Positions 18,292 through 37,105 of a DNA stretch of 39,090 nt are shown piece after piece (the stretch's first letter is position 1; every line of letters begins with the position of its first letter). A program made the position numbers and the translations under genes. Source of the DNA: a virus. The stretch lies in IMG/VR virus record IMGVR_UViG_3300013901_000002; one strand, written 5' to 3'. Under the pieces are notes generated by a model, which was not told where the DNA came from, searched no databases, and saw only the letters and a list, made by a program, of their open reading frames with translations.

Positions 18292-18295
18292 CCGC

Positions 18296-18607: not shown

Positions 18608-18619
18608 GGGGTACAGAGA

Positions 18620-18898: not shown

Positions 18899-18902
18899 TT
18901 CT

Positions 18903-20306: not shown

Positions 20307-20315
20307 GAGGGCAGA

Positions 20316-22223
20316 ATGGCAAGGATGCGGCAGCAGAGCCGTCAGACGACGGCCAACATCAGCAAGTTCCTCGGGCTATATGAAGCCGAGGACGGCGACA
20401 CGCAGCTGAAAGAGGGCGCGGCCGCGCTGATGGAAAATTTCCGCGTGACGGAGAACTTCCATATCCGGACGCGTCCGGGCATGGCGACGCGGCTCTATAC
20501 GCGCTCGAAGGTGCGCGGCATGTGGACGGGCTATATCAATGGCACGATCTGGGAAATGATCGTGGCCGGGAGCTTGCTTTATCTTTTCAACTCCGACGGC
20601 GTGCAGAAGTCCACGGCCGACGTAGAGGCCGGAACAGACCCCGTCTGCCTGTTCGATTTCGGCGGCATGGTGTACCTCCTGACCGGCAGCAAATACTATT
20701 TTATCACGGTCAATAACGAGGCGCTTTCCGTCGGCGTCGTCGGAGACCGGACGGCCTATGTACCCCTCGTGGTGACCGGAGCCGCGCCGAGCGGCGGCGG
20801 AACGACGCTGGAGCGTATCAACCGCCTGACCAACCGCAGGCGCGTGCAGTACAGCGCAGACGGCACGACGAAGGTCTATATCCTGCCGGAAGCCGGTACG
20901 GCGACGCGCGTCACGGTCAACGGGCAGCGGCTCGCGGGCGGCACGACGATCGAGGCGGGCAAGGTCACATTTGACACGGCCCCGGCGGCCGGAACGAATA
21001 ACGTTGAGATCGAATATTCCTACGGCACGAACGAGGTCGCGGCGCTTGCGAAGTGCCGTTACGCGGAAATGTACAACGGCGCGACGGATTCCCGCGTTTT
21101 CCTGTACGGCGACGGCACGAACATCTGCTATTATTCCGGCGTGACGGAGGCGGGCAAACCGAGCGCGCTGTATTTCCCGGCACTGAACGAGATCGCCGTG
21201 GCCGACAGCAACACGCCCATCACGGGCATGGTGCGGCACTATTCTCGCCTGATGGTGTTCAAGCCGGACGGCACGTTCGCCATCCGCTATGACACGCTCA
21301 CACTGGCAGACGGCAGCACGACGGCAGGATTTTATATCGCGCCCATGCACCGCGAGCTGGGCTCCGAAGCGATGGGGCAGGTCGTTACCGTGCAGAACTT
21401 CGCACGGACGTTCTGCGCCGGGTCTTTGTACGACTGGAAGCAGACGAGCAGCTATTATCAGGATGAACGGTATGCCCGCGTCTGCTCGGAGGCGGTACAG
21501 TTCACGCTTCAGGACGCAGACCCGTCCAAAATCTTCCTGTTCGACGATGACACGGAGCACACCTTCTACTGCTTCCTGAACGATGAGGCGGGCACGGTCC
21601 TCCTGAACGCCTATGAGCTGGGCGTCTGGTACAAGTACACCGGCTTCTTTGACGTGCACGCGATGATGCGCACGGCGGCCGGGCGGCTGTTGTTCGGTTC
21701 CAGCACGAACGTGCTCGAGCTGAGCGACCGCTACAGCTACGATTATATCCAGACCGGCCCCGCACCCGGTTCGGTCGACCAGACAGCGAAGACCTACGAG
21801 CGCCGCCCCATCAAATCGAAGTGGGAGAGTGGGCACATGGCGTTCGGCTCGGAATGCACGCGGAAGTATTCCTCGGTGCTGTGGGTGACGCTCAAGCCGA
21901 GTCTCGGGGCGGATATGCATATTTCGGCCCGCACGGACCGCCGCGCGACATACGCCGAAAAGCTCGTGGCTGCGAACCTGTTCGGCGGGTTCGGCTATGT
22001 CGATTTCCGCGCGTTTTCGTTTGAGACATACAGCGCGCCGAAGGTGCGGCGCATCAAGCTGAAGGTCAAGAAATTCGTGTACTACAAGCTCCTGCTGCAT
22101 GCGAATCTTGACGAGACGGCAACGACGGTCACGGAGCTTCCGACCGACGACCGCGAAAAGGGCGGCCGCGTGACCGTCCTGAACATCGACCAGCGCGTCC
22201 GGTATACGGGCGACGCCAAATAA
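20316..22223 (+). CDS. Large tail (tubular/nozzle-like) structural protein, 635 aa
   Basis: It has a strong RBS and beta-rich composition, and it sits ahead of adaptor-like and ejection-protein genes. The assignment rests on position and size only. Confidence 0.45.
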   Translation: MARMRQQSRQTTANISKFLGLYEAEDGDTQLKEGAAALMENFRVTENFHIRTRPGMATRLYTRSKVRGMWTGYINGTIWEMIVAGSLLYLFNSDGVQKSTADVEAGTDPVCLFDFGGMVYLLTGSKYYFITVNNEALSVGVVGDRTAYVPLVVTGAAPSGGGTTLERINRLTNRRRVQYSADGTTKVYILPEAGTATRVTVNGQRLAGGTTIEAGKVTFDTAPAAGTNNVEIEYSYGTNEVAALAKCRYAEMYNGATDSRVFLYGDGTNICYYSGVTEAGKPSALYFPALNEIAVADSNTPITGMVRHYSRLMVFKPDGTFAIRYDTLTLADGSTTAGFYIAPMHRELGSEAMGQVVTVQNFARTFCAGSLYDWKQTSSYYQDERYARVCSEAVQFTLQDADPSKIFLFDDDTEHTFYCFLNDEAGTVLLNAYELGVWYKYTGFFDVHAMMRTAAGRLLFGSSTNVLELSDRYSYDYIQTGPAPGSVDQTAKTYERRPIKSKWESGHMAFGSECTRKYSSVLWVTLKPSLGADMHISARTDRRATYAEKLVAANLFGGFGYVDFRAFSFETYSAPKVRRIKLKVKKFVYYKLLLHANLDETATTVTELPTDDREKGGRVTVLNIDQRVRYTGDAK

Positions 22224-22235
22224 GGGGGCAGAGAT

Positions 22236-22643
22236 ATGACGACCGGAAGAATGGTATTCGACATGGCCATTCACCTGATGGACGAGCAGAACGAATCGAC
22301 GGGCGCAACGCTCACGACCGACACGAAGGAATATGAGCTGCGCTCCGTGAATCTTTTGAACGTGCTGCGGCATCGGTGCTTCCCGTACAGCGACACGTTC
22401 CACGGCGGCGAGAACGGCAAGCGCGGCATCTGTCAGGCCATTTCCACGCTTGACGACGCGCTCGATCTGGATGACGCCGTCGCGCAGGGCGCGCTTCCTT
22501 ATGGGCTGGCGTCCCGGCTGCTTCTGGGGGAGAACGACGCGCTTGCGGATTTCTTCGAGCAGCTGTTTACCGAGGCGCTTGCCGCGTTGGGGAAGTCGTC
22601 CCCGGCACAGTTTGAGGACATCCCGCTTGCATACGGGCTTTAA
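22236..22643 (+). CDS. Small virion (adaptor-like) protein, 135 aa
   Basis: It has an AAGGGGG RBS. The assignment is positional. Confidence 0.45.
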   Translation: MTTGRMVFDMAIHLMDEQNESTGATLTTDTKEYELRSVNLLNVLRHRCFPYSDTFHGGENGKRGICQAISTLDDALDLDDAVAQGALPYGLASRLLLGENDALADFFEQLFTEALAALGKSSPAQFEDIPLAYGL

Positions 22644-22654
22644 GGAGGCATAGT

Positions 22655-23728
22655 ATGGCAAATACGATCAAAGAAACGCTCGGGGCCGACGGCGAAAACG
22701 GCCTGAAAAAGGTCGGCCGGACGACCGCAACGGCGTCTTCCGCGCAGTGGAGCGGCGCGCCTTATACGGCAGAGACGCAGAAAAGCGCAGCAAGCCCTAC
22801 GACGTCGGACTATGCCGGTATGCTGGGCGGCGTCGACTGGAACGATCCAAACAGCATCTATAAAACCTATGAACAGATCATCACGCGGCAGAACGACCCG
22901 ACAGACCTGAGCGACCTGATCAATCAGATGTACGACAAGAATCTGGAGGCCAGCAAGGCGCAGCTTGCCGGGAACTATGCCGGGATGCAGGAACGCTTCG
23001 ACGCCGAAAAGCAGCAGGCCGAAGAGAACGCCCGCCGCAAGGAAACGCAGTCCGCCATTGACGCGCAGCGCGCAGCGCAGGCGTGGAACGAGCAGAGTGC
23101 GGCCTACGGGCTCAGCAGCGGCGTACAGGGGCAGGCAGCGCTTGCCCGGTCGAATCAGCTCCAGTCTGATCTGACGGCCATCCGGACGGCGCAGCAGGCC
23201 GCAGACGCGGAGATCGAGCGACAGCGGTCGACGGCCGCGCAGGAGTACGAGGCGGCGCTGCGCGAGGCCATTGCCAGCAATGACTATAACCGTGCGACGG
23301 CCCTCTACGAGGAAGCCGTGCGTCTGGATCAGGCGTTCCGCGAGCAGGAGCAGACGACGGCCGAACAGGTAGCCAGCTATCTTTCCGGCCGTGCGGCCAC
23401 GGCTGGCAGCTACAGCTCCGGCGGTGGCAGCGGCTACAGCAGCGGCTCCGGCAGCAAAACGAGCGGCGGCAAGAAGCCGGATTACGACACGCTTGCCGGG
23501 CTTGTAGATTCCTATAACTCCGGCGGCTGGGATGCCATCATGCCGCAGCTCAGCTGGTACGAGGGCAACGGCTACGATATGGATTGGATATCCGATTACA
23601 TTTCGCAGTTCGGCGCGTCGCGCTATGACGGTTCGGCCGGACGCCGGACGAGCGGCAGCGGCTCCGCCGGTGCGGGCGGCGGTCACAACCTGATGCAGGG
23701 CAGGGACCGCACAAGCACGATGAGGTAA
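22655..23728 (+). CDS. Internal virion-like protein (Q/A-rich coiled coil, G/S-rich tail)
   Basis: It has an AAGGAGG RBS and lies upstream of the giant protein gene. Confidence 0.5.
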   Translation: MANTIKETLGADGENGLKKVGRTTATASSAQWSGAPYTAETQKSAASPTTSDYAGMLGGVDWNDPNSIYKTYEQIITRQNDPTDLSDLINQMYDKNLEASKAQLAGNYAGMQERFDAEKQQAEENARRKETQSAIDAQRAAQAWNEQSAAYGLSSGVQGQAALARSNQLQSDLTAIRTAQQAADAEIERQRSTAAQEYEAALREAIASNDYNRATALYEEAVRLDQAFREQEQTTAEQVASYLSGRAATAGSYSSGGGSGYSSGSGSKTSGGKKPDYDTLAGLVDSYNSGGWDAIMPQLSWYEGNGYDMDWISDYISQFGASRYDGSAGRRTSGSGSAGAGGGHNLMQGRDRTSTMR

Positions 23729-23732
23729 CGCG

Positions 23733-26700
23733 ATGAGCTGGGACGATATCAAGCGGCAGTATGGCGGCGGTTCCAATAGCGGCGGCTGGGAAAGCGTCAA
23801 GGCGCAGTGGCAGGCGGGAGCGCCTGCCCGCGCCGTGAAGCAGCAGGAGGAGCAGCAGCGCCAGCGCGCTGCGCTCCAGCTGGCCGAACGCGGGGCCGCA
23901 CAGGCCCGCGAGGCGGTCGAGACCGTCAAGAACGGCCTCAGGAGGTCACAGGGCGCGCAGAGCGGCGGCACAAACGGCAAGGCCAATGCAGACACGGTTA
24001 TGCGCGAACGGTTCGCGCAGGGCCGCACAAGCCGTCAGGGACAGCGCCTTACAGACAGCGCGACGAAGCAGACGCACGCCGAGGCCCGAAAGGCGGAGAA
24101 GCAGGAGCGCGCCTCGCAGCTGGCGGAAGCCGCGAAGCAGTATATCGACCTTGCCGTTCCGGCCATTGCGCAGGGTGCGGCAATGCGTATCACCGACCCG
24201 AGCGGGAAGCGCACGAAAGAACGCGCTGAAGAGTGGCAGAGATACCGCGACGGCTACGACAGCGGCCGCAGCGTGGAAACGGTGCAGGCGGAGTATGAAA
24301 AGGCGCAGGCCGACGCGGCGAGCGCCAGAGCCTACGCGAAGAATGCGCGCAGCCAGTCTGCCGGTTATCAGCAGAATGGCGCGCCGACACAGTATCAGAA
24401 CACGACCCGCCAGCAGAACAGCGCCAGAAATTCCGCGAAGCAGTGGGATGACGTGGCAACCGAGGCCGAAGAAAAGGCAAAGGCCCTCGCGACGGAACTC
24501 GGCTATGCAAAAACATTCTACCTGACGGATAAGTATGCAGGCCTTGCGGAAAACCCGGACTTTGCAGAAAAGTCGAAGGTCGACCCGGCCAAGCTGCGCG
24601 CCGCCGAAGAGACGGAGTCCCGCGCAGCGGTCCTGTATGCAGGCTTTGCCGACTCCGGTTCGCAGGCCACAAGGGACCCGGCTGCGGAGCTGATGACGGA
24701 CGATGAGCGGAAAACATACGTCTACCTGTACAACACGCAGGGGGCAGACGCGGCCGAGCAGTATTATAACGAGATGACGGACTCCCTCGAGGCGCGGCGC
24801 GGCCAGCAGATCGCAAGCGAATGGGACAGCACGCTCGGCAGAACGGCCTACAATTTCGGTATGGGCGTCCGCCGGTGGGGGCGCGGCATCGAGCAGCTGT
24901 TTACAGATGAGGCGCTGCCGACCTACGGCGAAGATTATGCGCAGGGCATCATGAATGAAGAGGCCGGGCGCGGCGGGCGCATTCTGTACAGCGCGGCAAA
25001 CAGCCTCGGCAATATGCTCCCGTCCGTCATTCTGTCTGCGGCCACGTCCGGCGCGGCGGGTGCGCTCGGCGCAAGTGCGAAGGCGGCAGAGGCTGCGGGC
25101 AAGGCTGCATCAACGGCCAGCATGTTTGCGGGCGCGAAGGGCAACGCTTACACGGAGGCCCTGCGGCAGGGTATGACCAAGGCGGAGGCCGGGACATACT
25201 CCACGCTGGTCGGCGCGTCCGAGGCGGGCCTTGAATACCTCCTCGGCGGTATCTCCAAGCTCGGCGTGAACCCCGTCGGCAAAGCGGCCGAAAAGTGGGT
25301 GTCAGATCTCGGGACCGGCTACGCGAAAGCGATCCTCGGGCCGGCCGGTAAGCTGCTCGGCAGCGCGGCCGGTGAGATCCTCGAAGAAAACATCCAGAAC
25401 TATCTGGAACCGATCTTCCTGAACGCCGTGACCGGCGAAGAGGGCGAAATGCCCGGCTGGGATGAGTTCGTTGAAACGACGCTCTCCGTGCTGATTACCG
25501 TCGGCCTGATGGAAGGGCCGGGGACGGTATCCAGCATCAATACCAACATGCAGACCACGATCCCCGAGATGCAGCGCCAGTGGGTCGACTCTGCGCTTAA
25601 TGTCTTCCCGGAGGGCTCTTCTGCGCGGCTTGTTGCGCAGGCACTCAGTGAGCGCCTGAACAGGGGCGATACAATTACCGCGCAGGAATTCAGGGCGGAG
25701 CTGCGGGAGCTGGGCCTCTCCGAGTCTGCAATGAACAAAATCCGCGCCGGGAAGGTCACGCTCGAAGAAGTCCAGCAGGCAATGACGGAGGCGCAGCGCG
25801 GTAAATTTACCGTTGCCGCGCCGCAGGAAGGCGCAGCAGTCTCAAGCACTGCCACAGAGGTAGCACAGGAGGCCGCACGCAAGCGCACAGCGGCCGGAAA
25901 TGCCGCTCCCGTCTACATGGCTTACGGTTTCAAAGAGGACGCAGCGCGCGCAGCAGCGGCCGTGACGGCAAAGATGGAAGCGGGGGAGACGCTCACGAAC
26001 GCGGAGGTCGGCGCGCTCCGGCTGAAAACGCAGCGCGGCCGCGAAGCGCTCGGCGCGATCCTCGGCATTGAGATCGACTCCCCGCAGGCGTTCCGCCGGG
26101 CCGAGCTGTTTTATCAGCAGGGCCGCGCCGCGCAGGAGTGGAACAGCGTGCATCTCGACGTCGCGACGCTCCCGGCGACACAGGAAAGCGCCGTGGCGAT
26201 CCTAGGGAACGAGCAGGCGCTTGCGGCGTTTGAGATGATGCTGGAGCGGCCGGTAGAAGGCGTCTGGCAGGCCCGTGTCGAGCAGGTCATCAAGGGCCTG
26301 AAGGAGATACAGGCCGGGCGCGGGGAGAATGCGCAGACCGTCAGCGCGGCGGAGCAGCGCGCAGCATATGCAAGCCAGCTTCCGCAGATCGCGCAGCCCA
26401 TTGACTGGAACGGCCCGGAAGGGGCCGGGTTCCGTGATTCTGTGCGAGCACTGTATAGGCGCGCAGGCGTTCGGGACAAAATCCCGAACACGTCAAACCT
26501 TTTTGCCGCACTCGGCAATATGCTTGCAGGGGAAACCCTGACGACGCGCCAGATCGAGGGCCTGAATCTGTCAGACCCGGCCTACCGCATGGGCCTTGAA
26601 TTGGTGACCGGGCTTCACGTCGACGTCCCTGAGGGTGCAAACTGGCAGGCCCGCGGAAACGCGTTCCGCGCGGCAGAGGCCAACTATCAGGAGGCACGCC

Positions 26701-29700
26701 GATATACCCAGAATTCCGGCCTCCAGATGTCCACGACAATGCTGGATTCCACAGGGGCGCGCACCGCACAATTGAATATTGACAACGCCGCAGCGAACGG
26801 GTATAATCAGAGCATCAACGAGAATGGGGGTGCTGCAAATGGATTATACGAAGAAGCTGGACGAATTTCTGGGGCAGTTCCCATACGAGAAGAATCTCGT
26901 GGAGCATTATCGCAAGGACGGAATGACGGATCAGGAAATCTGGGAGTTTCTCGAGTCGTTTTACTGAGCGAAGCGGCCAGAAAGACGTTTGAACAGCGCG
27001 GCGTTGTCCCCGCAGAGTTTTCCTCTGCGGACAACGCCGCGTTTTCTTCTGCCCTGACTGCCGCAAGGGACGCGGATGCGCGCAACGGCTGGGCGGTCAC
27101 GCCGGAACCCGGCGCAGAACTGGATCAGCGCGGAGTCCGGTCTTTCCTGACCGGAAACGGCGCTTCCGGATTTGCGATCACGCCGGACGGCGATATTATC
27201 GGCGTCTTCAGCAACAAGGCGGCGGGCGCGCCGTTTGGTATGACGCAGCAGATTCTCCCGCTCGCGGTCGCTAACGGCGGTGTTAAACTGGATTGCTACG
27301 GCGAACGGCTTGTAAGCCTGTACGAGCGGAACGGCTTTGTTCCGGTCGCCCGCGTGGAATTCAATTCGGAATATGCCAATCCCGGCTGGACGGCGGATAA
27401 GGGAAGCCCGGATATCTACTTCATGATGCACAACGGCGACAGCGCCGACACCATGGTGCAGAACTACGGCAAGTATCAGCTCTCTACACAGGAGGAGCTG
27501 AACGCGCTCCCCGTCATGAGCTATGACGAGGCGGCTGCATACCGCGACAATCTTATTTCGCGGCGGCGCGGCAGCGACACGACGTCCGTCGGCGCGGCTC
27601 CGTCCGGCTTTGACCCCCTGAGTCACGCTGCAAACGAGTACGGTGCGATCCCGCCGGGCGAAAACCCGCAGGGGGACAATCATATCGTCGACATTCCCAA
27701 GAGCATGGACGGCAAGACCAAGGTGCAGCAGGGCACGCGCACGTTCGCCGAAGCGGCTGCGACGCAGGACGTCGACATGATCGAGGACGCGGTGGTGCGG
27801 GGCATGTTCAACCGCCGCGGCTGGAACTTCGACGAGCAGCGGCAGCAAGCTACAGATTGGCTCAACGAGCGCACGCCGTCGCAGGCCGTTGTGGAATGGA
27901 CGTCGGAGAACGTCAAAACGCCATCGGCGAAGAATTTCGCCCGCGGCATGCTGCTCTATGCTGACCTGCAGAAGCTCTGGAAGGAATCCGAGGCAGGCTC
28001 CACCGAGCAGCGCATGTATCACGATATGTCCCTTGAGGTCATGGCGTCGCTGAACAACTCCGCGACGCTGGCGGGCGAAACGCTTGCGCTGATGCGGCTC
28101 ATCAAACGGCTGAATCCGGCCGACAAGGTCGAGCTGATCCGGCGCGGGGTCAAGAGCCTGAACGCCACGCTGAAAAACGGCGTGCAGGTCGAGATGAATC
28201 CTGAGCTTGTGGAAGCGTACTATCAGGCGCTGCATGACGGCGGCGAACAGGCGATCCGCCTCACGGAGGAAAATCTGAAGCGCGACATCGCCGCGCAGGT
28301 CCCGAAGACGCTTGCCGACCGCTGGAATGCATGGCGCTATCTGTGCATGCTGGGCAATCCCAAGACCATCATCCGCAACGCCGCGGGCAACCTCGGTATG
28401 ACCGGCGTGAAGCGCCTGCGTGATACCGTCGGAACGGGGCTGGAGCTGTTCATCCCGAAGGAAGAGCGAACGAAGGCGACGCTGTGGGCGCGGAACTCCA
28501 AGAAGGGCCGAGCACTGGCGGAGTTCATCTCTCAGAACTACTACACGGACGAGGTTCAGGACACGCTCCGCGGCGAAGGGAAGTACTCGCAGAATCTGGA
28601 GAATTCCCTGCGCCAGATGATCCGCGAACAGAACGGGACGTTCACCGCGCCGGTTCTCAAGCAGTGGCAGGCATTTACGGAGTGGGCCATGAATGATTCC
28701 GCGTTCGGCGACGCTGGATTCCTGCGGCATCATTACGTCAATTCGTTCGTGCAGGCCGCGCTTGCCAGAGGCTACACCGCGGAGGATTTCGCCCGCAAGG
28801 GCGGCGTCTCGCAGGAGGTTTTGACCGAGCTGCAGGATTACGCCGTGAATCAGGCGCAGAAGGCGACGTTCCGCGATCTCAACAGCTTTTCCAAGCTCAT
28901 GAAGAAGCTTCCGAACAAGGATAATTTCTGGGGCGTCCTGATGCAGGGCATCCTGCCGTTCCGCTCTACGCCCGCCAACGTGGCCGTGCGCTCCGTGGAA
29001 TATAGTCCGCTCGGCATTGCGCAGGGCATTCAGCAGCTCGTCCGATACGCGCTGGACAAGCGGGCAGACCGGCCGCTGAGCTACTCCAAGTCGCAGATCA
29101 TTGAGTCTTTCTCGCAGGGCATCGTCGGCACGGTTCTGTTCGGGGCCGGGTTCGTGCTTGCCAATGCCGGCATCATCCACGGAGCCGCAGATGACGACGA
29201 TGAGCGCAAGGGCATCCAGTCGTATTCTATCACGGTCGGGGGCAAAAATATCACGCTGGACTGGCTGTCTCCGTCCATCGTCCCGCTCATGATGGGTGCA
29301 ATGGCAAGCGATATGTCAGCCGACGGCGCGTATACTTTTGATGCGCTCGTCACGTCCGCCGGAACGATGCTGCAGCCCATGTTCGAGATGTCTATGCTTT
29401 CCGGCGTCTCCGACCTGTTGGATTCCTTCCGGTATGCCGACAGCAGCAACGACGTTACGGGCATTGCATGGGGCCTGTTTTGCGAGCCGTTCATGAATTA
29501 TCTGTCGCAAGGCATCCCGACGCTGCTCAGCCAGACGACGCAGACCATCGGCGACGAAAGCACCTACACCTATACCGGCGATCTGCCGACCGGCTTCCTG
29601 AAGAAGCTCACCAAGAGCGTCTGGAAGATGCTCCGCAAAACGCCGCTGTCGCTCGTCTTCGACGACCGGCAGGCGGAGTTCGTGGACGAGTACGGCCGCA

Positions 29701-30749
29701 CGCAGGACAAGGGCAACGTCGTTGAGCGGTTCTTCAACTCCTTCCTGAACCCGGCCTATGTCTCCGACGTAATGGAGACCGACCTCGATACGGAGCTGGA
29801 GCGGCTGGAAAAATCGACCGGCACGAACGCCGCGCCGACGCGGCGCGGGTATACCATTACTGTCAACGGCGAACGCAAGCGCCTGACGAAAGACCAGTAC
29901 GACCGCTACAGCCGGGAGTATGGTACGCAGGCTGCAGAGATGATGGGCGCGCTGCTTGTCAGCAAGCAGTACGACGAGATGACCGACGAGGAACGTGTGG
30001 GAGCATTCGAAAAAATTGGCCAGCTCGCCGATAAATACGGTAAAATCTCCGCGGGAGTTGGGTACACGGTAAAGGACGGCGACGCCGATAAGGCGCTGTT
30101 TGATCTCGTGGATTCCGGCATCCCCGTCGCCGAGGCTTACGCGGCCCGCCTGTACCGCGATCAGCTCAACAAGGATTCTATCCTAGATGCCACGACGCGG
30201 CAAGAGCGGTTCTCCGCATGGGTCTCCGGCCAGAGCGGCTGGAGCAAGAAGCAGAAGGACGCCGTGCTTGATGCCTACGGGACGTTCTTCACGCAGACGC
30301 CTGCGAACACGGAGAAGTATGAGGCCGCCGCGAAGATCGTCGGCACGGACAAGGCGATGCAGGTCAGTGACGCGATCCGCGCCCTGCAGCCGGAACAGAA
30401 GTCCGACGCGAAGTACGAGTACGACCGCGCAAAGGACGACACAGCAAGCAAGACCTACAGCTCTGTCCGGACGGTGCAGCGCATCGAGCTGATTGCCAAG
30501 CAGTCGGGGCTCAGCGACAAGGACAAGTATGCCCTGATGGAGCTTTATACCACGGACTGGCGCTGCGAGGAGTTCCGGCAAGCCGGGCTTTCTCCGAAGG
30601 TCTACGCGGAGTTCCTGCGAGGCAAGGACGAGTATTGCCCGAGCGGCCAGTGGTCGGACAAGCGCTTCACGCAGTGGCTTGCGAGTACGAGCTACAGCGC
30701 AGAGGTAAAATCCAAAATCCGAGCGATTTACAACATGGACAAGCCTTAA
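23733..30749 (+). CDS. Giant (2338 aa) polyvalent virion/ejection protein with TM-rich segment and a GNAT-like central domain
   Basis: It is a single open frame. There is an N-terminal coiled coil and a hydrophobic G/A-rich block (..NMLPSVILSAATSGAAGALG..). A GNAT-like fold is suggested by GFAITPDGDIIGVF...LDCYGERLVSLYERNGFVPVARV, followed by a long helical C-terminal region with TM segments. Confidence 0.75.
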   Translation: MSWDDIKRQYGGGSNSGGWESVKAQWQAGAPARAVKQQEEQQRQRAALQLAERGAAQAREAVETVKNGLRRSQGAQSGGTNGKANADTVMRERFAQGRTSRQGQRLTDSATKQTHAEARKAEKQERASQLAEAAKQYIDLAVPAIAQGAAMRITDPSGKRTKERAEEWQRYRDGYDSGRSVETVQAEYEKAQADAASARAYAKNARSQSAGYQQNGAPTQYQNTTRQQNSARNSAKQWDDVATEAEEKAKALATELGYAKTFYLTDKYAGLAENPDFAEKSKVDPAKLRAAEETESRAAVLYAGFADSGSQATRDPAAELMTDDERKTYVYLYNTQGADAAEQYYNEMTDSLEARRGQQIASEWDSTLGRTAYNFGMGVRRWGRGIEQLFTDEALPTYGEDYAQGIMNEEAGRGGRILYSAANSLGNMLPSVILSAATSGAAGALGASAKAAEAAGKAASTASMFAGAKGNAYTEALRQGMTKAEAGTYSTLVGASEAGLEYLLGGISKLGVNPVGKAAEKWVSDLGTGYAKAILGPAGKLLGSAAGEILEENIQNYLEPIFLNAVTGEEGEMPGWDEFVETTLSVLITVGLMEGPGTVSSINTNMQTTIPEMQRQWVDSALNVFPEGSSARLVAQALSERLNRGDTITAQEFRAELRELGLSESAMNKIRAGKVTLEEVQQAMTEAQRGKFTVAAPQEGAAVSSTATEVAQEAARKRTAAGNAAPVYMAYGFKEDAARAAAAVTAKMEAGETLTNAEVGALRLKTQRGREALGAILGIEIDSPQAFRRAELFYQQGRAAQEWNSVHLDVATLPATQESAVAILGNEQALAAFEMMLERPVEGVWQARVEQVIKGLKEIQAGRGENAQTVSAAEQRAAYASQLPQIAQPIDWNGPEGAGFRDSVRALYRRAGVRDKIPNTSNLFAALGNMLAGETLTTRQIEGLNLSDPAYRMGLELVTGLHVDVPEGANWQARGNAFRAAEANYQEARRYTQNSGLQMSTTMLDSTGARTAQLNIDNAAANGYNQSINENGGAANGLYEEAGRISGAVPIREESRGALSQGRNDGSGNLGVSRVVLLSEAARKTFEQRGVVPAEFSSADNAAFSSALTAARDADARNGWAVTPEPGAELDQRGVRSFLTGNGASGFAITPDGDIIGVFSNKAAGAPFGMTQQILPLAVANGGVKLDCYGERLVSLYERNGFVPVARVEFNSEYANPGWTADKGSPDIYFMMHNGDSADTMVQNYGKYQLSTQEELNALPVMSYDEAAAYRDNLISRRRGSDTTSVGAAPSGFDPLSHAANEYGAIPPGENPQGDNHIVDIPKSMDGKTKVQQGTRTFAEAAATQDVDMIEDAVVRGMFNRRGWNFDEQRQQATDWLNERTPSQAVVEWTSENVKTPSAKNFARGMLLYADLQKLWKESEAGSTEQRMYHDMSLEVMASLNNSATLAGETLALMRLIKRLNPADKVELIRRGVKSLNATLKNGVQVEMNPELVEAYYQALHDGGEQAIRLTEENLKRDIAAQVPKTLADRWNAWRYLCMLGNPKTIIRNAAGNLGMTGVKRLRDTVGTGLELFIPKEERTKATLWARNSKKGRALAEFISQNYYTDEVQDTLRGEGKYSQNLENSLRQMIREQNGTFTAPVLKQWQAFTEWAMNDSAFGDAGFLRHHYVNSFVQAALARGYTAEDFARKGGVSQEVLTELQDYAVNQAQKATFRDLNSFSKLMKKLPNKDNFWGVLMQGILPFRSTPANVAVRSVEYSPLGIAQGIQQLVRYALDKRADRPLSYSKSQIIESFSQGIVGTVLFGAGFVLANAGIIHGAADDDDERKGIQSYSITVGGKNITLDWLSPSIVPLMMGAMASDMSADGAYTFDALVTSAGTMLQPMFEMSMLSGVSDLLDSFRYADSSNDVTGIAWGLFCEPFMNYLSQGIPTLLSQTTQTIGDESTYTYTGDLPTGFLKKLTKSVWKMLRKTPLSLVFDDRQAEFVDEYGRTQDKGNVVERFFNSFLNPAYVSDVMETDLDTELERLEKSTGTNAAPTRRGYTITVNGERKRLTKDQYDRYSREYGTQAAEMMGALLVSKQYDEMTDEERVGAFEKIGQLADKYGKISAGVGYTVKDGDADKALFDLVDSGIPVAEAYAARLYRDQLNKDSILDATTRQERFSAWVSGQSGWSKKQKDAVLDAYGTFFTQTPANTEKYEAAAKIVGTDKAMQVSDAIRALQPEQKSDAKYEYDRAKDDTASKTYSSVRTVQRIELIAKQSGLSDKDKYALMELYTTDWRCEEFRQAGLSPKVYAEFLRGKDEYCPSGQWSDKRFTQWLASTSYSAEVKSKIRAIYNMDKP
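26779..26807 (+). promoter_or_regulatory. Perfect consensus promoter TTGACA-17 nt-TATAAT inside the giant gene
   Basis: TTGACA lies at 26779-26784 and TATAAT at 26802-26807, with AT-rich sequence upstream (ATTGAATA). Confidence 0.7.
26839..26967 (+). CDS. Embedded 42-aa acidic micro-protein in the +1 frame of the giant gene
   Basis: GGGGGTG lies 6 nt upstream of the ATG. It translates MDYTKKLDEFLGQFPYEKNLVEHYRKDGMTDQEIWEFLESFY. By hand count, 29/42 codons end in G/C in this frame, against 9/43 in the host frame. Confidence 0.55.
   Translation: MDYTKKLDEFLGQFPYEKNLVEHYRKDGMTDQEIWEFLESFY
26998..27050 (+). terminator. Strong intrinsic terminator inside the giant gene, closing the embedded unit
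   Basis: The stem is 11 + 7 bp (26998-27017 / 27023-27040) with a 2-nt bulge and a 5-nt loop, followed by GTTTTCTTCT. Confidence 0.65.
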
Positions 30750-30750
30750 A

Positions 30751-31004
30751 ACCGTTTCGGGGTTGCTACGCGGTTGCTACGTGACCGCGTGGGAACCCCG
30801 AAAAACGTGCGTATATGGCGGTTTTTAGGGGGGTTATGAAAATTGTTGAAATATCACGATTCCCATATTTGACCTTTTACAATCGTGAAAAACTTAGAAT
30901 TTGAATATTTTGCACTAATTCCCCGCAAAACAGTTAGCTAAATGTTAGCTCCCTCTTTGCGTATCGGGCGCGTTGCTACGTGGTTGCTACGCGGTTGCTA
31001 CGGA
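30751..31004. promoter_or_regulatory. attP region: five GGTTGCTACG arm-type repeats flanking an AT-rich core
   Basis: Repeats start at 30761, 30772, 30971 (CGTTGCTACG), 30982 and 30993, all direct and 11-bp phased. The AT-rich segment at about 30830-30950 contains the inverted CACGATT/AATCGTG pair. The region abuts the int stop codon. Confidence 0.65.
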
Positions 31005-32069
31005 TCAATCTACGAGGTCTATGGCGGCGCGGAGCGTCTCGACATCTTGATTGATATAAATGTCACTGGTCGTCTTGTAATTCGTGTGTCCGATCATTCG
31101 CTTGATATCCTCAGGGCGCGCACCGGCGGCGGCAAGCCGCGTGGCGAAGGTATGCCGGGCACAGTGCGGCGTGAGATCGTCCGGGAGTCCGAGTGCTTCC
31201 CGCGCTGGCCCCCATACCTGCAGCCGGAACAATTGCGCCGTGTATCGTTTCCCTTTTTTGTTGCGGTACAACGGCCCCGGCCCGGCGGCGGCCCAGCGGT
31301 CGACGATTGGGATGATATCCGGGTGAACGGGGACGATGCGGCCTTTGCCTGCGGCCGTCTTGATGCCGCCGCGGATGATGTGCTGTACCGGGTCGTAATC
31401 CTCGACGTTGAGCGCGCAGAAGGCTGTGACGCGGAACCCAAGATAACAAAACGCGAGCATTGCGTCTCCGCCGGGGACTTCGGCCCAATGCTCTTTTAGC
31501 GTCCGGAATTCCTCATTCGTGAAAGCCCGGTTTTTGGATTGGTCGTCTTTGACGTGAACGCTGATGAACTGCATATTGTCTCGCTCGACGTAGTTGTTCT
31601 CATACGCGCACTTAAACGTTGCACTTAAAGCAAACCGAGACAGGTTTGCAGTATGCTTTGCGTACTGCGCGTACAGGTCGGCGACGATCTCGCGAAGCTC
31701 TCCGGCGGACACGTCGCGGATCATACGCCTCACAAATGTGCCGTCCTGCAGCTTTTTGACGCGATTCCACGCTGTTTCATATGAGCGCAGAGTGCCCTTG
31801 TTTTCGATGGTCAATTCTGCCGTTTTGTACCAATATTCGTACACCTGCTGCACAGTGACCGGGGCGGCGGTGACGGGATTCTTTGCCCATCTGCGCAGGG
31901 CCTCGCGGGCTTCGGCGCGGGTATTGTAGCTTCCGAGATTGTTATAGACCCGGCGGGGCTTGCCGGACTCGTTTAGGATATAGGTCGCCGGAGCATAGGC
32001 GACGTAGGCGGTACGATGGGCATAGCGGCGGCGGACGATGGAACCGCTGCCGTTTTCTCTTTTTGCCAT
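31005..32069 (-). CDS. int: Tyrosine recombinase / phage integrase
   Basis: It is 354 aa. The C-terminal catalytic region reads ..HCARHTFATRLAAAGARPEDIKRMIGHTNYKTTSDIYIN, and an N-terminal SAM-like domain is present. Confidence 0.9.
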   Translation of the reverse strand: MAKRENGSGSIVRRRYAHRTAYVAYAPATYILNESGKPRRVYNNLGSYNTRAEAREALRRWAKNPVTAAPVTVQQVYEYWYKTAELTIENKGTLRSYETAWNRVKKLQDGTFVRRMIRDVSAGELREIVADLYAQYAKHTANLSRFALSATFKCAYENNYVERDNMQFISVHVKDDQSKNRAFTNEEFRTLKEHWAEVPGGDAMLAFCYLGFRVTAFCALNVEDYDPVQHIIRGGIKTAAGKGRIVPVHPDIIPIVDRWAAAGPGPLYRNKKGKRYTAQLFRLQVWGPAREALGLPDDLTPHCARHTFATRLAAAGARPEDIKRMIGHTNYKTTSDIYINQDVETLRAAIDLVD

Positions 32070-32179
32070 TTGGGCTCCTTTCCTGCTCCCACGCGCTCAA
32101 TATAGCGCAGAAAACCGCACACGTCAAGAATCTTTGCTTTTTATCCGCGTTTCGGGCATACTTAGCGCGGGGTGTTTTT

Positions 32180-32425
32180 GTGGTCGAGGTGTTGATCTGG
32201 CAGGCCCGCATGGCGCGGGGGCTGTCGCTGCGGGAACTGGAGCGGCGCAGCGGGGTATCCAGGGCGGCGCTGCAGCGCATCGAATCCGGTGGGGTCAGTC
32301 CGACGCTGGCGCAGCTGGACTTGATCGCGGGCGCTCTTGATTGCAGCATATCACAACTTTACCGGGAGTCCAATAGGTGTACAAAAAATGTCCCGATATC
32401 GGGACATTTTTGGAGAAAACGTTGA
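32180..32425 (+). CDS. Small XRE-type HTH regulator divergent from int (start uncertain)
   Basis: The product contains ARMARGLSLRELERRSGVSRAALQRIESGGVSPTLAQLDLIAGAL. GTG/TTG start options lie at 32180-32192, and there is no strong RBS. Confidence 0.6.
   Translation: MVEVLIWQARMARGLSLRELERRSGVSRAALQRIESGGVSPTLAQLDLIAGALDCSISQLYRESNRCTKNVPISGHFWRKR
32384..32411. terminator. Perfect 28-nt palindrome AAAAATGTCCCGAT/ATCGGGACATTTTT (bidirectional terminator)
   Basis: Read directly. It has an A-tract upstream and a T-tract downstream. Confidence 0.75.
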
Positions 32426-32451
32426 CGGGAGCCGCTCCAACGTGGCATAAT
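32422..32451 (+). promoter_or_regulatory. Promoter TTGACG-18 nt-TGgCATAAT
   Basis: TTGACG lies at 32422-32427 and CATAAT at 32446-32451, with an extended -10. Confidence 0.55.
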
Positions 32452-32479
32452 CAGAACGCAGGGGGAAACGGAGGACGGT

Positions 32480-32581
32480 ATGCAATACATTCCCGCGATT
32501 CAGAAGCTACTAAAAGGAGCCACGACCGAACAGCTCGCAATGATCTACCATTTTATCCGCGGCCTGCTGGCCGCAGCCTGA
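32480..32581 (+). CDS. 33-aa micro-protein with its own promoter and terminator
   Basis: ACGGAGGA lies upstream of the ATG at 32480. It translates MQYIPAIQKLLKGATTEQLAMIYHFIRGLLAAA. Confidence 0.45.
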   Translation: MQYIPAIQKLLKGATTEQLAMIYHFIRGLLAAA

Positions 32582-32590
32582 TACCCTGCA

Positions 32591-32620
32591 AAAAGCCCGC
32601 CGAGCACCGGCGGGCTTTTG
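32591..32620. terminator. Bidirectional intrinsic terminator (end of the early operon and of the micro-ORF unit)
   Basis: The stem is GCCCGCCG/CGGCGGGC, flanked by AAAA and TTTT. Confidence 0.8.
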
Positions 32621-33034
32621 TTATCCGATCATACCGGGGTCAGGCTCCAGCTCCACGACAACGCGCGGCTCAGCGGAATAGCGCTTGACGACACGGCCGT
32701 CCGTGACCTGCGCGTCGTCGGCGTAAGCGAGGCCGTTGAGCGCGTCGCAGATGATCTTGCCGATGTTGTCCCAGTCCGGCTTCTTTGTCGGCAGGAGCTT
32801 CCCTGCCAGTTTGCGGAGGACAGTCTGGCGGGAATCGCTCTTGTTGCAGGGGTGGTAAGCGTAGATGCGGACGGCAACGGGGCCGTCCAGCATGGCGCAG
32901 CCGCTCTGTGCCCACGCGGTGCGGACGCTCTCCTCGTAGTCGCGGGTCTTCTGCGGCGTGAATGCGTGCCCGGTACGGGTAAAGCGCGGGCGCGCCTTGC
33001 CTTCCGGCGCGCCCAGAATCACGAAACGCTGCAT
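32621..33034 (-). CDS. rusA: RusA-family Holliday junction resolvase
   Basis: The product contains GKARPRFTRTG..., ...KKPDWDNIGKIICDALNGLAYADDAQV. Confidence 0.85.
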   Translation of the reverse strand: MQRFVILGAPEGKARPRFTRTGHAFTPQKTRDYEESVRTAWAQSGCAMLDGPVAVRIYAYHPCNKSDSRQTVLRKLAGKLLPTKKPDWDNIGKIICDALNGLAYADDAQVTDGRVVKRYSAEPRVVVELEPDPGMIG

Positions 33035-33471
33035 CAGAACGGGAATTCTTCGTCGTTGCCGGTCAACAGATCGAGCTGGCCCTGCGGCTTATCCGAGAAA
33101 GAATCGACGAAGTGGCCGGACTCGTAGCCAGCACCCAGATCGGGGAAGTCGGACTTTTTGTCGACAAACCACGTCTGCCGGACGTTGATCTCTGCGGACC
33201 GGCGCTGGCTGCCGTCCTTTGCGGTATAGTGCCTGATCTGCAGGCGGCCGCTCAGGCAGATCAGGCGGCCTTTTTTCCAAAACGCGGCGACGGCCTCGCC
33301 TGCCTTGCCCCATGCGACGCAGTCGATGAAGTCGGCAACTTTTTCCCCGTTAACATCCTTTACGTCGCGATCGCAGGCGATGGTGAACTTGCAGACCTTC
33401 GTGCCGCTGGCGCATTCGATCAGGCGCGGGTCCGCGGCGAGGCGGCCTGTGATACAAATTACGTTGAGCAT
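33034..33471 (-). CDS. ssb: Single-stranded DNA-binding protein
   Basis: The product starts MLNVICITGRLAADP.., has an OB-fold pattern and ends in the acidic tail DEEFPF. The ATG follows GGAGGAAA. Confidence 0.85.
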   Translation of the reverse strand: MLNVICITGRLAADPRLIECASGTKVCKFTIACDRDVKDVNGEKVADFIDCVAWGKAGEAVAAFWKKGRLICLSGRLQIRHYTAKDGSQRRSAEINVRQTWFVDKKSDFPDLGAGYESGHFVDSFSDKPQGQLDLLTGNDEEFPF

Positions 33472-33689
33472 GTGTTTCCTCCTGCGCTTTGTGCGCTTGT
33501 TTTTTCCTTGCCGGGAGCCTCCTGCGCGGCGTCCCACTGCCGCAGGTGACTCCACGAGCAAAAATAGAGTCGCGCGCCGTTCAGTCCCCGGCGCTGGTAG
33601 GCCCATTGTGCCGTTGTGTAACTCGTCTTTCCGCAGACGGGGCAGCGATTCGCCCTAACTTCTGCCGACCCAAGCGGGCGGCCCTTCAT
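33459..33689 (-). CDS. Small zinc-ribbon protein, hypothetical
   Basis: The ATG at 33689 forms an ATGA overlap. The product contains CPVCG...C..SH. Confidence 0.55.
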   Translation of the reverse strand: MKGRPLGSAEVRANRCPVCGKTSYTTAQWAYQRRGLNGARLYFCSWSHLRQWDAAQEAPGKEKTSAQSAGGNTCST

Positions 33690-33886
33690 CGGCGGCCTGC
33701 CTTCCGCTGCTCGTCCCACTGCTCGAGAATGAGCAGGATTTTCCGCTCAACCTCGGGGTTCCTGCGGCCGAGCATGATGGAGTTGACGTAGCTGCGCGAG
33801 TAGTTCAGGGCTTCCGCAAGGTCTGCCTGCGTCTTCCCGAGACGCCGGAGTTTGCACTTGACCACGTCCTCGAAAGCCATCCTCAT
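33686..33886 (-). CDS. Small HTH (XRE-like) protein
   Basis: ATG at 33886 lies 9 nt after GGGAGG. The product contains LGKTQADLAEALNYSRSYVNSIMLG. Confidence 0.6.
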   Translation of the reverse strand: MRMAFEDVVKCKLRRLGKTQADLAEALNYSRSYVNSIMLGRRNPEVERKILLILEQWDEQRKAGRR

Positions 33887-34083
33887 CAAGGTTTGCCTCC
33901 CTTTCTGCCGGGTGTACCGGCCTTCTGCGCGCGGCGATAGATCTCGCAGCGCGGCCAGCTGCCGCAGCAAACGGCCTCATAATGCGCGTCACGCTGCAGG
34001 TCTGACTTTAGCTGTACCGTCCCGCCGTCGCAGTTGATGCGGCGGGGAGACAGGTAACGGAATCGCGGGCACTGGATCAGCAT
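33886..34083 (-). CDS. Cys-rich 65-aa hypothetical protein
   Basis: It has an ATGCTGA overlap with the upstream stop and a TGATG overlap downstream. Confidence 0.45.
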   Translation of the reverse strand: MLIQCPRFRYLSPRRINCDGGTVQLKSDLQRDAHYEAVCCGSWPRCEIYRRAQKAGTPGRKGGKP

Positions 34084-34781
34084 GCGGCATCCTCCTTGAG
34101 CATGGCCTCAATGGCCGCCTGCGCAAGCGGGGAGATGGACGCGCTGTCGTGGGTTTGGTACTGCGCATTCCGGGCGACGGCCTTGTCTGTGGCGCGCCGC
34201 GGCCCCCACTTTTCGCGGGCGGCGCGGCGGACGGTCAGATTCCAGTCCTTCCACTTGTTCTTGTTGTAGGTCGACTGCGCCATTTCGTCGACAAGGCGAA
34301 TCCAGTACGTCGCTTCCGCCTCTCCAAGATCGCGGCAGAGCCGCTCATATTCTGCATCTGTCAGCTTGACCCAGCCATAGGGTGCGCGGGGTTTCTTCGG
34401 CGGCGCAGGGGGGCTTTTCGGCGCAGTGTGAGCCTCTTCTGCGGGTGTGGGTTCCTTCGGCGGTTCGACCTTCAGCGGCTCCTTCTGCGGTGCGGGCTCT
34501 TCCGGGGCCGGTTTCTGCGCGGCTGCTTCCTTCGGGGCTTCCTTCGGGGCTTCCTGCTGCCGCTTTGCGTGCTTTTTCCCTCCGGCTGACATCTTCGCGG
34601 CGATGTCCAGAGACGGCCGCACGAGCATGAACAGGGCAGACGCCATCGGCGACAGGTCGACCGGTTCGACGTCATCCAGAGCATAGGCGCACATTGCCAT
34701 AATGGACTCGACCTGCACGGTCTTCGGCAGGGGAAAGATCGCCTCCCAGAACGTGCGGGAAAACGTAAATTGGTCTCTCAT
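34077..34781 (-). CDS. Replisome-organizer/DnaD-like protein with a PAPxE-rich linker
   Basis: The ATG at 34781 forms an ATGA overlap. The N-terminus FTFSRTFWEAIFPLP.. and the C-terminus VKLTDAEYERLCRDLGE..YNKNKWKDWNLTVRRAAREKW resemble phage DnaD-type proteins. Confidence 0.5.
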   Translation of the reverse strand: MRDQFTFSRTFWEAIFPLPKTVQVESIMAMCAYALDDVEPVDLSPMASALFMLVRPSLDIAAKMSAGGKKHAKRQQEAPKEAPKEAAAQKPAPEEPAPQKEPLKVEPPKEPTPAEEAHTAPKSPPAPPKKPRAPYGWVKLTDAEYERLCRDLGEAEATYWIRLVDEMAQSTYNKNKWKDWNLTVRRAAREKWGPRRATDKAVARNAQYQTHDSASISPLAQAAIEAMLKEDAAC

Positions 34782-35461
34782 TCGGGCTTCTCCTCTTCTT
34801 CGTGGTGCTGATGGAGCAGGATGATCTGCGCGGTCGTGGGTGCGTGCTCCATCAGCCATTGCATGGCGTCCTCGCGGGACATGTGCGTCTCCCGGACGCG
34901 GCGCTCGTGGCTCGCGCTGCCGCGATCCAGTGCGGCCGAAGTGCGGGCCTGCAGGTCGGCGTCGGCGTAGTTGGCTTCGATCAGGTACAGCTCGGCGCGC
35001 GGGGGTTCGACGCCGTACAGGTCTTTGCAGTCCGTGGCGTAAAACACGGTATCACAGCCGACCCGCAGCCAATAGGCGAGGCAGGGGACGTCGTGGGGGA
35101 CTGCGAAAGCGCGGGCGAAGATATCCGGTTCATACGGGACGCTCGGGCCGGACTGGCCGAGCAGGCAGAGCGCGTGGCCGGGGACGGCCGGGAGAACCTG
35201 CGACAAAGGGCAGGCCTCCCGGATCAGAGCTGTGCAATCCTCCGGGCAGATGACGGTCAGGCCGGGGCGGCGCTCTGTGATCGCTTTTAGGGTCGGAAGC
35301 TTCAGGTGGTCGCCGTGCCGGTGCGTGATGAGCACGCACCGCAGGGCAGGGATGTAAGGCTCCAGCTTTTTCAGCGGCACGCCGCAGTCGATCAGCACGC
35401 AGCCGCCAAGCAGGACGGCGTTACCTTTGGAGCCGGTCGCGATGATCTCAGCTTTCAGCAC
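34778..35461 (-). CDS. Metallo-beta-lactamase-fold hydrolase
   Basis: It has a GTG start after AAGGAGGAGG and contains the ITHRHGDH motif. Confidence 0.8.
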   Translation of the reverse strand: MLKAEIIATGSKGNAVLLGGCVLIDCGVPLKKLEPYIPALRCVLITHRHGDHLKLPTLKAITERRPGLTVICPEDCTALIREACPLSQVLPAVPGHALCLLGQSGPSVPYEPDIFARAFAVPHDVPCLAYWLRVGCDTVFYATDCKDLYGVEPPRAELYLIEANYADADLQARTSAALDRGSASHERRVRETHMSREDAMQWLMEHAPTTAQIILLHQHHEEEEKPE

Positions 35462-37104: not shown

Positions 37105-37105
37105 G

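Follow-up and report, generated by a model that had tools for sequence, protein, structure and literature searches.

A moron-like small gene probably lies out of frame within a giant polyvalent-type gene of a temperate phage

The viral sequence analyzed here (IMG/VR record IMGVR_UViG_3300013901_000002; 39,090 nucleotides on one strand, the whole of which is called the window) contains a 2338-codon open reading frame (ORF) encoding a giant protein of the polyvalent type. This host gene likely carries an autonomous, moron-like small gene, read in the +1 frame and placed in a disordered linker just before a GNAT-like module of the giant protein. The embedded unit consists of a promoter, a ribosome-binding site, a 42-codon ORF, and a terminator, and its conservation was judged on about 60 distinct relatives (33 to 90% host-protein identity) among 87 loci gathered from genome, viral, and metagenome collections.

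Results

Layout and composition of the embedded unit

The features of the host gene and of the unit are as follows.

23733-30749, + strand: host gene, a 2338-codon ORF in frame 0 (from the ORF list), encoding a giant multi-module polyvalent-type phage protein
26745-26948, + strand: host-frame linker (residues ~1005-1072), which bears the unit and is predicted to be disordered and only kept open
26779-26784, + strand: -35 hexamer TTGACA, exact consensus, in host codons I-D-N
26781-26791, + strand: element U, GACAACGCCGC, the first copy of an 11-nt repeat, which overlaps the -35 hexamer and the spacer; candidate anti-terminator strand
26802-26807, + strand: -10 hexamer TATAAT, 17 nt after the -35 hexamer, in host codons Y-N; predicted transcription start near 26814
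26826-26832, + strand: Shine-Dalgarno (SD) sequence GGGGGTG, 8 nt before the ATG, in the region of host codons N-G-G
26839-26967, + strand: embedded small gene in the +1 frame, 42 codons plus TGA, product MDYTKKLDEFLGQFPYEKNLVEHYRKDGMTDQEIWEFLESFY
26952-27572, + strand: GNAT-like domain (residues ~1074-1280), always found after the unit and apparently shuffled with it as one cassette
26998-27040, + strand: terminator hairpin with an 18-bp stem, formed by L (26998-27008) and R (27030-27040) with an apical stem between them
26998-27008, + strand: left arm L, host codons R-G-V-V, an inverted copy of the repeat
27030-27040, + strand: right arm R, host codons D-N-A-A, the second copy of the repeat
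27041-27050, + strand: U-rich tract GTTTTCTTCT, host codons A-F-S-S, predicted 3′ end of the short transcript

A preliminary description of the window, made from its letters alone, had proposed that a promoter, the GGGGGTG motif, an ORF, a hairpin, a U tract, and an 11-bp direct repeat were embedded in the host gene, and every one of these elements was found where it had been placed. Relative to the 2338-codon ORF, whose own frame has no stop across the unit, the 42-codon ORF is shifted to +1, and the peptide reads as described, with a net acidic charge (10 acidic and 5 basic residues). Also exact were the counts of codons ending in G or C, i.e., 29/42 for the embedded and 9/43 for the host frame. 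In a scan of the whole gene with 43-codon windows, the mean count was 33.2 ± 4.5, a count of 8 was reached only at the unit, and the minimum elsewhere was 24; as a fraction, G/C at the third codon position is 0.70 to 0.95 throughout the giant gene, the embedded unit excepted. The G+C content is 46.5% in the embedded ORF, 52% in the unit, and 62% in the host gene. The promoter, which had been called the best in the window, is the sole 12/12 consensus match in positions 20000 to 39090. The idea of a self-contained promoter-to-terminator unit was borne out by the relatives, in which each part is conserved and bears signatures of selection, as described below.

A protein search with residues 800 to 1400 of the giant protein as the query yielded 26 metagenomic relatives, which align to residues ~1010 to 1290 at 45 to 57% identity, in the host frame and across the 83 codons that separate the two repeat copies. 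The relatives were found in metagenomes of the gut and rumen and in assemblies of Oscillospiraceae and Clostridiales. A search of cultured phage genomes with the DNA of the unit region (26000-27800) gave no match.

Promoter conservation

Under the criteria for sigma-70/sigma-A promoters (hexamers 16 to 18 nt apart), the promoter of the unit matches the consensus at 12/12 positions with a 17-nt spacer. Its conservation was tallied on two sets of sequences, one anchored on the host protein and the other on a hidden Markov model (HMM) of the peptide, which is independent of the promoter. In the protein-anchored alignments, the DNA reads AAT ATT GAC AA and, after the 17-nt spacing, TAT AnT, with a constant codon phase. 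The third codon positions are frozen in the -35 hexamer, the isoleucine codon being ATT in 27/27 sequences and the aspartate codon GAC in 27/27. In distant clades, the isoleucine gives way to valine or leucine, yet the codon retains the form nTT, and TTGACA is thereby preserved. The homologous -35 hexamers are TTGACA or the variants TTGACG, TTGACC, and TTTACA, followed by 17 nt and TAnnnT; the spacer varies in sequence, never in length, and the last T of the -10 hexamer is invariant despite an encoded residue that can be N, T, S, D, or A. As controls, invariant aspartate codons in the same sequences were split roughly evenly between GAC and GAT, and the third positions of the invariant motifs KLDCYG, DGDI, and GWAV were free (entropy of 0.5 to 1.9 bits). 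Among the ~60 units anchored on the peptide HMM, 55 have at least 11/12 promoter matches together with a 17-nt spacer, compared to 1.5% of random windows, and those that fall short lie on truncated contigs or are the second ORF where a unit has two. Taken together, these comparisons indicate that the promoter is conserved as a DNA signal rather than on account of the encoded protein.

The small ORF and its product

The predicted pairing with the anti-SD sequence reaches -12.0 kcal/mol in the window. Homologous units carry GGAGG or GGGGG 7 to 10 nt before the start (approximately -7 to -14.7 kcal/mol, mostly -10 or stronger), their host-frame N-G-G is encoded by AAT GGA GGT, and the start codon is ATG or sometimes GTG or TTG. 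Homologous +1 ORFs of 40 to 49 codons are present in the related units, even at 33 to 40% host identity; three examples from relatives are MTATEWLEEWLKKFPEDSFLIDEMREDGNPDEQIKSFLEGI, MAQEEALKKIVAEYPEFTKDAIQIIQDKGDLLELLETLESAY, and MSSQEQKEFEAWVKTLCPWDREWALQMAAEGTPLTEIQYYVDF.

Read in the three frames, the nucleotide differences of 20 gap-free pairs alter the amino acid 241 times in +1, 380 times in the host frame, and 371 times in +2, which is non-coding. Counted by position within +1 codons, the substitutions number 209 at the first, 124 at the second, and 273 at the third. Since the +1 frame changes less than the host and +2 frames and also displays this position pattern, the small ORF is the frame under amino-acid selection, and this selection is purifying. 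The +1 protein is thus better conserved than the host-frame sequence, the latter changing as fast as the non-coding frame.

AlphaFold2 modelled the 42-residue product as three helices with a predicted local distance difference test (pLDDT) score of 94.4. Profile and fold searches with the peptide found no significant match in Pfam, PHROG, PADLOC, or PDB. Public gene calls of the peptide family are scarce, with 24 among 5.8 billion protein clusters, none of which is named. Compared with 1.84 billion representative proteins, the peptide gave three true matches (47, 42, and 188 amino acids). Two further matches, P0029 and P0031, were rejected as repetitive false positives.

Some loci contain more than one copy of the small ORF. 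In one lineage (L084:5549-5848, L085:3934-4233, and L086:2526-2825), a single TTGACG-17-TATAAT promoter precedes two tandem +1 small ORFs, the first of 46 amino acids (MEQQIQQALQLLQEKGYRLSGRDLEVIPMLLREGSTLEEIEEQYLF) and the second of 43, each with a separate SD sequence; in L084 and L086, the host frame has no stop across the pair. A 2.3-kb metagenome contig (L020:349-1127) contains three tandem units, with peptide matches at 349-468, 677-799, and 1005-1127, and this triple copy could reflect either true amplification in tandem or an error of assembly.

The host frame across the unit

In an AlphaFold2 model of the host-protein segment, the linker has a pLDDT below 50 over residues 1 to 68 of the modelled segment, the host-frame product of the unit DNA scores 30 to 42, and the ordered domain starts right after it. 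The host frame is open in 27/27 units, and a synonymous recoding of the +1 ORF leaves it open with a probability of 0.006 to 0.25 per unit. The downstream GNAT-like domain is without a start codon of its own. In these comparisons, the constraint on the host frame across the overlap is limited to staying open. The preliminary description had named, as the pattern that would speak against the unit, a conserved host frame combined with an interrupted +1 ORF and non-conserved promoter and terminator elements; in the homologs, the host frame is indeed kept open, but the +1 ORF, the promoter, and the terminator are kept as well.

The host motifs located at the repeat copies, N-I-D-N-A and D-N-A-A-F-S, recur in homologs, and, read codon by codon, the R-G-V-V of the left hairpin arm is the antisense of D-N-A-A. 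In locus L015 (~2480-2510), a host-frame stop lies one codon before K-L-N-I-D-N, and the upstream continuation of the frame with the unit and the GNAT-like domain is not obvious; this locus may be a recently rearranged or unfused copy.

The terminator

Hairpins were compared as fixed U, L, and R blocks with folding of each individual sequence; whole-hairpin alignment with MAFFT misaligned the apical stem and the left arms. A hairpin of ~8 to 20 bp is found at this place in every homologous unit, and the stem sequences of distant clades are unrelated, still paired. According to RNAalifold, 4/9 basal-stem pairs have compensatory double changes. The native hairpin is more stable than recodings synonymous in the host frame (median z of -3.3; p < 0.05 in 23/26). 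In addition, TTTTC follows the stem in 26/26 distinct units, while recodings of the same residues have at least 4 T in the first five bases in only 9 to 41% of cases. The structure of an intrinsic terminator is thus kept beyond what coding would impose. A search of Rfam gave a sub-threshold match to the Vibrio small RNA tfoR at 26947-27051 (26.5 bits versus a gathering threshold of 70; E of 2e-4), which probably reflects the hairpin and the U tract alone.

The 11-nt repeat as a candidate anti-terminator

The repeat GACAACGCCGC starts at 26781 and at 27030, i.e., 249 nt (83 codons) apart, with an inverted copy at 26998-27008. Because U overlaps the -35 hexamer and the spacer, it would be present in RNA started upstream of the unit and absent from RNA started at the internal promoter. 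In the window, U is complementary to L at 11/11 positions. In the 18 units of the main clade, L pairs with U at 9 to 11 of the 11 positions, often better than with R, and 89.9% of all U:L cells are paired. The two variable U:L pairs are strictly Watson-Crick (CG in 13 units and UA in 5; GC in 10 and AU in 8), with none unpaired, and the same L columns are partly joined to R by G-U wobble. One of the co-varying L positions is the synonymous third base of a glycine codon. Cells with a double change in U:L number 13, compared to 4.6 ± 1.9 after shuffling, and 0/500 shuffles gave as many. Mapped on the tree of the adjacent domain, these changes represent at least 3 independent switches at one pair and at least 2 at the other (at least 5 in total).

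When the upstream-started transcript was cut just after L, the minimum-energy fold paired U with L in 17/18 units, the two elements being 205 to 235 nt apart. The alternative folds of the full-length transcript differ by 0 to 5 kcal/mol in most units, and the short transcript always forms the terminator. These comparisons suggest that the 11-nt repeat is functional and may act as an anti-terminator for late transcription of the giant gene.

The GNAT-like domain, the cassette, and orphan copies

Homology between relatives starts 2 to 3 codons before the -35 hexamer. The cassette is homologous in 105/105 pairs, while the preceding 247 residues are homologous in only 8/105, which argues that shuffling moves the unit together with the domain behind it. 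Homologs of the GNAT-like domain share 45 to 57% identity, and its AlphaFold2 model has a pLDDT of ~90. Its best fold matches in PDB are GNAT N-acetyltransferases, at a weak level (8gxk_A, probability 0.99, E of 0.018); a sequence search of PDB with the domain profile gave no match. Among cultured relatives, the protein search found the GNAT-like domain only, without the linker or the unit, in actinophages and Rhodococcus plasmids, and the actinophage proteins are annotated as acetyltransferase or minor capsid protein.

A 42-residue relative of the peptide, P0034, is called as a gene in bacterial chromosomes (contigs of up to 180 kb). This orphan unit (L080-L083, ~3930-4260) consists of TTTACA-17-TATAAT, GGGAGG, an ATG, the ORF, and the same hairpin with TTTTCTGCTG, and is followed by ~25 codons that remain of the GNAT-like domain and by a second terminator. 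The giant gene is absent around it, and its neighbors are ordinary cellular genes (PAP2, CAT, FAA-hydrolase, and SpoIIR). The small ORFs are also intact in degraded prophages of the L084-L086 lineage, where the giant ORF is fragmented. Such copies point to an autonomous unit. The orphan unit shares 86% DNA identity with the unit of L023, which starts with GTG where the orphan has ATG.

Alternative explanations

A conserved +1 domain would also be expected from a programmed +1 ribosomal frameshift in the linker, which would produce a truncated giant protein with a three-helix tail (...FLESFY) beside the full-length one. Two sequences are compatible with such a product, since L002:2800-3150 joins the upstream host frame to the peptide frame (...GARLDGLSGGKMTDEEILSALKSFA, then a stop) and the 188-residue P0030 joins the frames likewise (...NIDNADDSMYNQEKGARRMDYTKK...LLESFY, then a stop). 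They are the only hint of it, the GNAT-like part is out of frame, and these fusions are probably indel mutants or sequencing or assembly errors. Each unit, on the other hand, has a strong SD sequence and a conserved promoter of its own as well as a start codon where the conserved part begins, and the gene is free-standing in L080-L083. Moreover, +1 stops lie 0 to 5 codons before the start in L005 (MK-stop-MGVLKM), L012 (KII-stop-stop-EAARM), L013 (RR-stop-RRM), L018 (VR-stop-TPM), and L040 (EV-stop-QM), leaving almost no room for a shift site, and a conserved slippery motif was not seen by eye. We therefore regard frameshifting as very unlikely. That a chance ORF and chance consensus matches simply coincided in a compositionally odd linker is hardly credible at all: small ORFs and promoter- or terminator-like matches are indeed common (a scan of 19 kb yielded 8 sites resembling promoters and 21 resembling terminators, about as many as expected from shuffling), but ~60 distinct sequences share the entire arrangement, each of its parts bears signatures of selection, and its product folds with high confidence.

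The preliminary description had interpreted the 11-bp repeat as the scar of an in-frame insertion by microhomology, from which some homologs lacking the 83 codons would be expected. The exact direct repeat 249 bp apart and the lower G+C content of the unit than of the gene agree with a recent moron insertion, but the segment is present in all 26/26 protein homologs and is read through in the related loci. The repeat copies, for their part, are the flank of the -35 hexamer and the right arm of the terminator, i.e., conserved functional elements, and they differ between lineages in a coordinated, base-pairing manner, the -35 copy co-varying with the left arm. A recent insertion was consequently abandoned as highly improbable. 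An ancient fusion of neighboring genes across an intergenic moron is a different and possible event, which would leave no such scar. The -35-like block and its inverted copy could otherwise be DNA sites, either a recombination junction or a protein-binding site, with the hairpin being a DNA palindrome. Homology between different giant proteins does begin exactly at the -35 block, and strict Watson-Crick covariation of U with the left arm is what identical inverted half-sites would show. Two hexamers separated by a spacer of variable sequence and a length fixed at 17 nt nevertheless fit a promoter and not a recombination site; the L:R differences are only of the G-U-compatible kind, and unrelated apical stems pair and are always followed by TTTTC, which is a signature at the RNA level. 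In addition, the free-standing chromosomal copy keeps the promoter, ORF, and terminator without any module junction. DNA sites thus seem an improbable explanation, and an autonomous small gene in the +1 frame is preferred.

Several points weigh against this reading. Its support consists throughout of sequence comparison and prediction, and all loci were retrieved via the GNAT-like domain or the peptide, so that the strength of their association is partly ascertainment. The near-identical contig L004:3016 (= L062) has GTGACA instead of TTGACA, which turns the host isoleucine into serine; this is the sole substitution in ~580 aligned bases, and the nearby contig end is error-rich. The peptide itself lacks a significant match in the four databases named above, the PDB by fold search. 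For the anti-terminator in particular, only 3 to 7 of the 11 U:L positions pair in the distant clades L031, L033/38/46, L040, and L048, which retain the promoter, ORF, and terminator, so that the anti-terminator would not be universal or would use another segment. Furthermore, the terminator is usually the slightly more stable alternative in full-length folds, and read-through would hence hinge on folding kinetics or other factors. The strict Watson-Crick covariation of U with L would also fit two protein-binding DNA half-sites.

The phage and its giant gene

The phage of ~40 kb encodes a major head protein, a portal, an endolysin, a large terminase, the giant protein, and, on the opposite strand, an integrase; further genes encode RusA, SSB, Erf, and a helix-turn-helix (HTH) regulator. 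The giant gene sits between the terminase and virion genes and the integrase gene (31005-32069), which adjoins it and marks the phage as temperate. The gene order within 9748-23728 is unusual, as the major head protein and portal come first and the endolysin (17236-18291) precedes the large terminase (18903-20306). A second portal-sized gene (20316-22223), with a weak match to a virion structural protein, lies upstream of the giant gene.

A Pfam search with the 2338-residue giant protein gave no match at E < 0.01, and its sole PHROG match, phrog_2563 (function not assigned), is located on the GNAT-like domain. So few library matches are unusual for a protein of this size, most of whose modules are uncharacterised. 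Elsewhere, LPD3, PBECR3, or Zeta_toxin domains accompany the same cassette in proteins or protein fragments, and because the cassette is shared with such proteins, we assign the host gene to the polyvalent-protein class (PMC5512222). Opposite the giant gene runs a 739-codon antisense ORF (26961-29180, - strand), whose composition is that of the shadow ORFs commonly seen in G+C-rich coding DNA rather than that of a gene.

Discussion

Proposed working and function

In the aligned relatives, signatures of selection are found on each signal, on the +1 protein, and for an open host frame, together with covariation of U and L. From these, we infer the transcript ends, expression in the lysogen, and the anti-termination mechanism. 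A sigma-A/sigma-70 promoter within host codons N-I-D-N...Y-N would start a transcript of ~230 nt near 26814, the SD sequence in host N-G-G and the ATG at 26839 would direct synthesis of a 42-residue acidic three-helix protein, and the hairpin and U tract in host R-G-V-V...D-N-A-A-F-S would end the transcript near 27045 to 27050. The giant protein would be translated straight through in frame 0, the unit DNA providing a stop-free disordered linker. In late transcripts that contain 26781-26791, U would pair with L as soon as the latter is made, block the hairpin, and allow read-through, whereas transcripts from the internal promoter, which are without 26781-26791, would terminate. Expression from the prophage is plausible given that the phage is temperate and its integrase gene adjoins the giant gene.

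The function of the peptide stays a guess, as it has no significant match in the databases searched; the preliminary description had listed anti-defence, exclusion, and regulatory roles as candidates. Speculatively, it could bind the adjacent GNAT-like domain as a partner or confer immunity to it, a guess prompted by its place in one cassette with the domain, its independent consensus promoter, and its persistence in degraded prophages and orphan copies. The fallback would be a general moron function expressed by the lysogen. We tentatively put forward a combined scheme, which we hold to be possible though doubtful, in which a lysogen would make the small protein only, the -35 flank would act as an anti-terminator during lytic growth so that the giant protein is made, and the small protein would confer immunity to the GNAT-like effector. 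As for its origin, the fusion of modules across a pre-existing small gene seems likelier than de novo birth within coding sequence.

Comparison with known systems

Morons were reportedly first described in HK97/lambda-like phages, by Juhala, Hendrix and colleagues in 2000, as independent promoter-gene-terminator units. The unit resembles them in having its own sigma-70-type promoter and intrinsic terminator, in its location in the late region of a temperate phage, and in its deviant base composition, and it could plausibly be expressed while the late genes are silent. Unlike classical morons, which are intergenic and present or absent among relatives, the unit lies inside an ORF, out of frame, in all relatives examined, and its DNA additionally codes for part of the host protein.

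Transcription attenuators rely on alternative terminator and anti-terminator RNA structures, and the lambda nut and HK022 put sites, found solely in the transcripts of certain promoters, mediate promoter-specific antitermination. By analogy, mutually exclusive L:R or L:U pairing would decide on termination in the unit, according to the promoter of origin. In contrast to these systems, the candidate strand overlaps the -35 hexamer, is excluded from its own transcript by geometry, and lies inside a coding sequence; a ligand, leader-peptide stalling, or a protein factor is not implied.

Overlapping genes are found in viruses in general (PMC8227390), and Rz1 within Rz of phage lambda is an embedded gene (PMC5295617). 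As with Rz1 in Rz, a larger gene contains the whole of a small one, which is read from the same strand in the +1 frame and has a separate ribosome-binding site, and both frames are constrained. Rz1, however, shares the transcript of Rz without its own promoter or terminator, both of which the unit has, and the selective roles appear reversed, as here the embedded frame is under amino-acid selection and the host frame is merely open.

Polyvalent proteins of phages and conjugative elements, including those with GNAT modules, were described by Iyer et al. (2017, PMC5512222). The giant protein resembles them in its length of 2338 residues, in modules shuffled among relatives (the upstream parts are unrelated in 97/105 pairs), and in its GNAT-like module. 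With respect to packaging in the virion and delivery to the host cell, as in the polyvalent type, the only observations are the position of the gene after the terminase and virion genes and the “minor capsid protein” annotations of distant relatives. In the article of Iyer et al., the words promoter, frameshift, and linker are absent, and an internal expression unit is apparently not discussed. Full-text literature searches found no precedent for the embedded unit.

Two kinds of small regulatory partners were also considered. Like SinI (PF08671), the peptide is a very small helical protein with a G-x-[ST]-x-E-E-I-x-x-F/Y-L motif. The SinI anti-repressor assignment was rejected, with a best score of 19.7 bits versus a cut-off of 31.4 (E of 7.5e-4) in 2/29 family members and the peptide of the window itself unmatched; for a SinI partner, hhalign of the peptide family against the 126-residue HTH regulator of the phage, the only candidate tested, gave a probability of 0.04. 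Type II toxin-antitoxin systems with a GNAT toxin (TacAT/AtaRT), in which a small gene immediately precedes the toxin gene, have a similar layout, as 30 nt separate the end of the small ORF from the hairpin in front of the GNAT-like domain. Compared to TacAT/AtaRT, the domain is inside a giant protein and a terminator stands between the small ORF and the domain. Searches for the defining features of these systems found no ribbon-helix-helix or HTH Pfam match in the peptide and no Pfam match in the giant protein, and the resemblance to GNAT is at the fold level and weak.

Significance

Within ~270 bases, the unit would combine a promoter, a ribosome-binding site, a folded protein, a terminator, and a probable anti-terminator with a linker of a giant protein in another frame. 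The host-frame “motifs” NIDN...Y, NGG, RGVV, and DNAAFS would then be shadows of nucleotide signals, which calls for caution when domain boundaries of polyvalent proteins are annotated. Of all the elements, the anti-terminator overlapping the promoter is both the most original and the one with the least proof; if confirmed, it would let one terminator act on the transcripts of one promoter only and may be of use in synthetic biology. If the combined scheme above is true, it would provide the first example of an immunity gene overprinted on the linker of a polyvalent effector protein, as well as of an anti-terminator defined by promoter geometry.

Immunity, if true, would mean that producing or lysogenic cells and carriers of orphan copies are protected against an injected GNAT-like effector. 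Should the peptide neutralise the neighboring domain, it would become clear how fused multi-effector proteins are able to harbor toxic modules. Since gene callers almost never report the small gene, a whole protein family of phages and prophages of gut and rumen Clostridia seems to have been overlooked.

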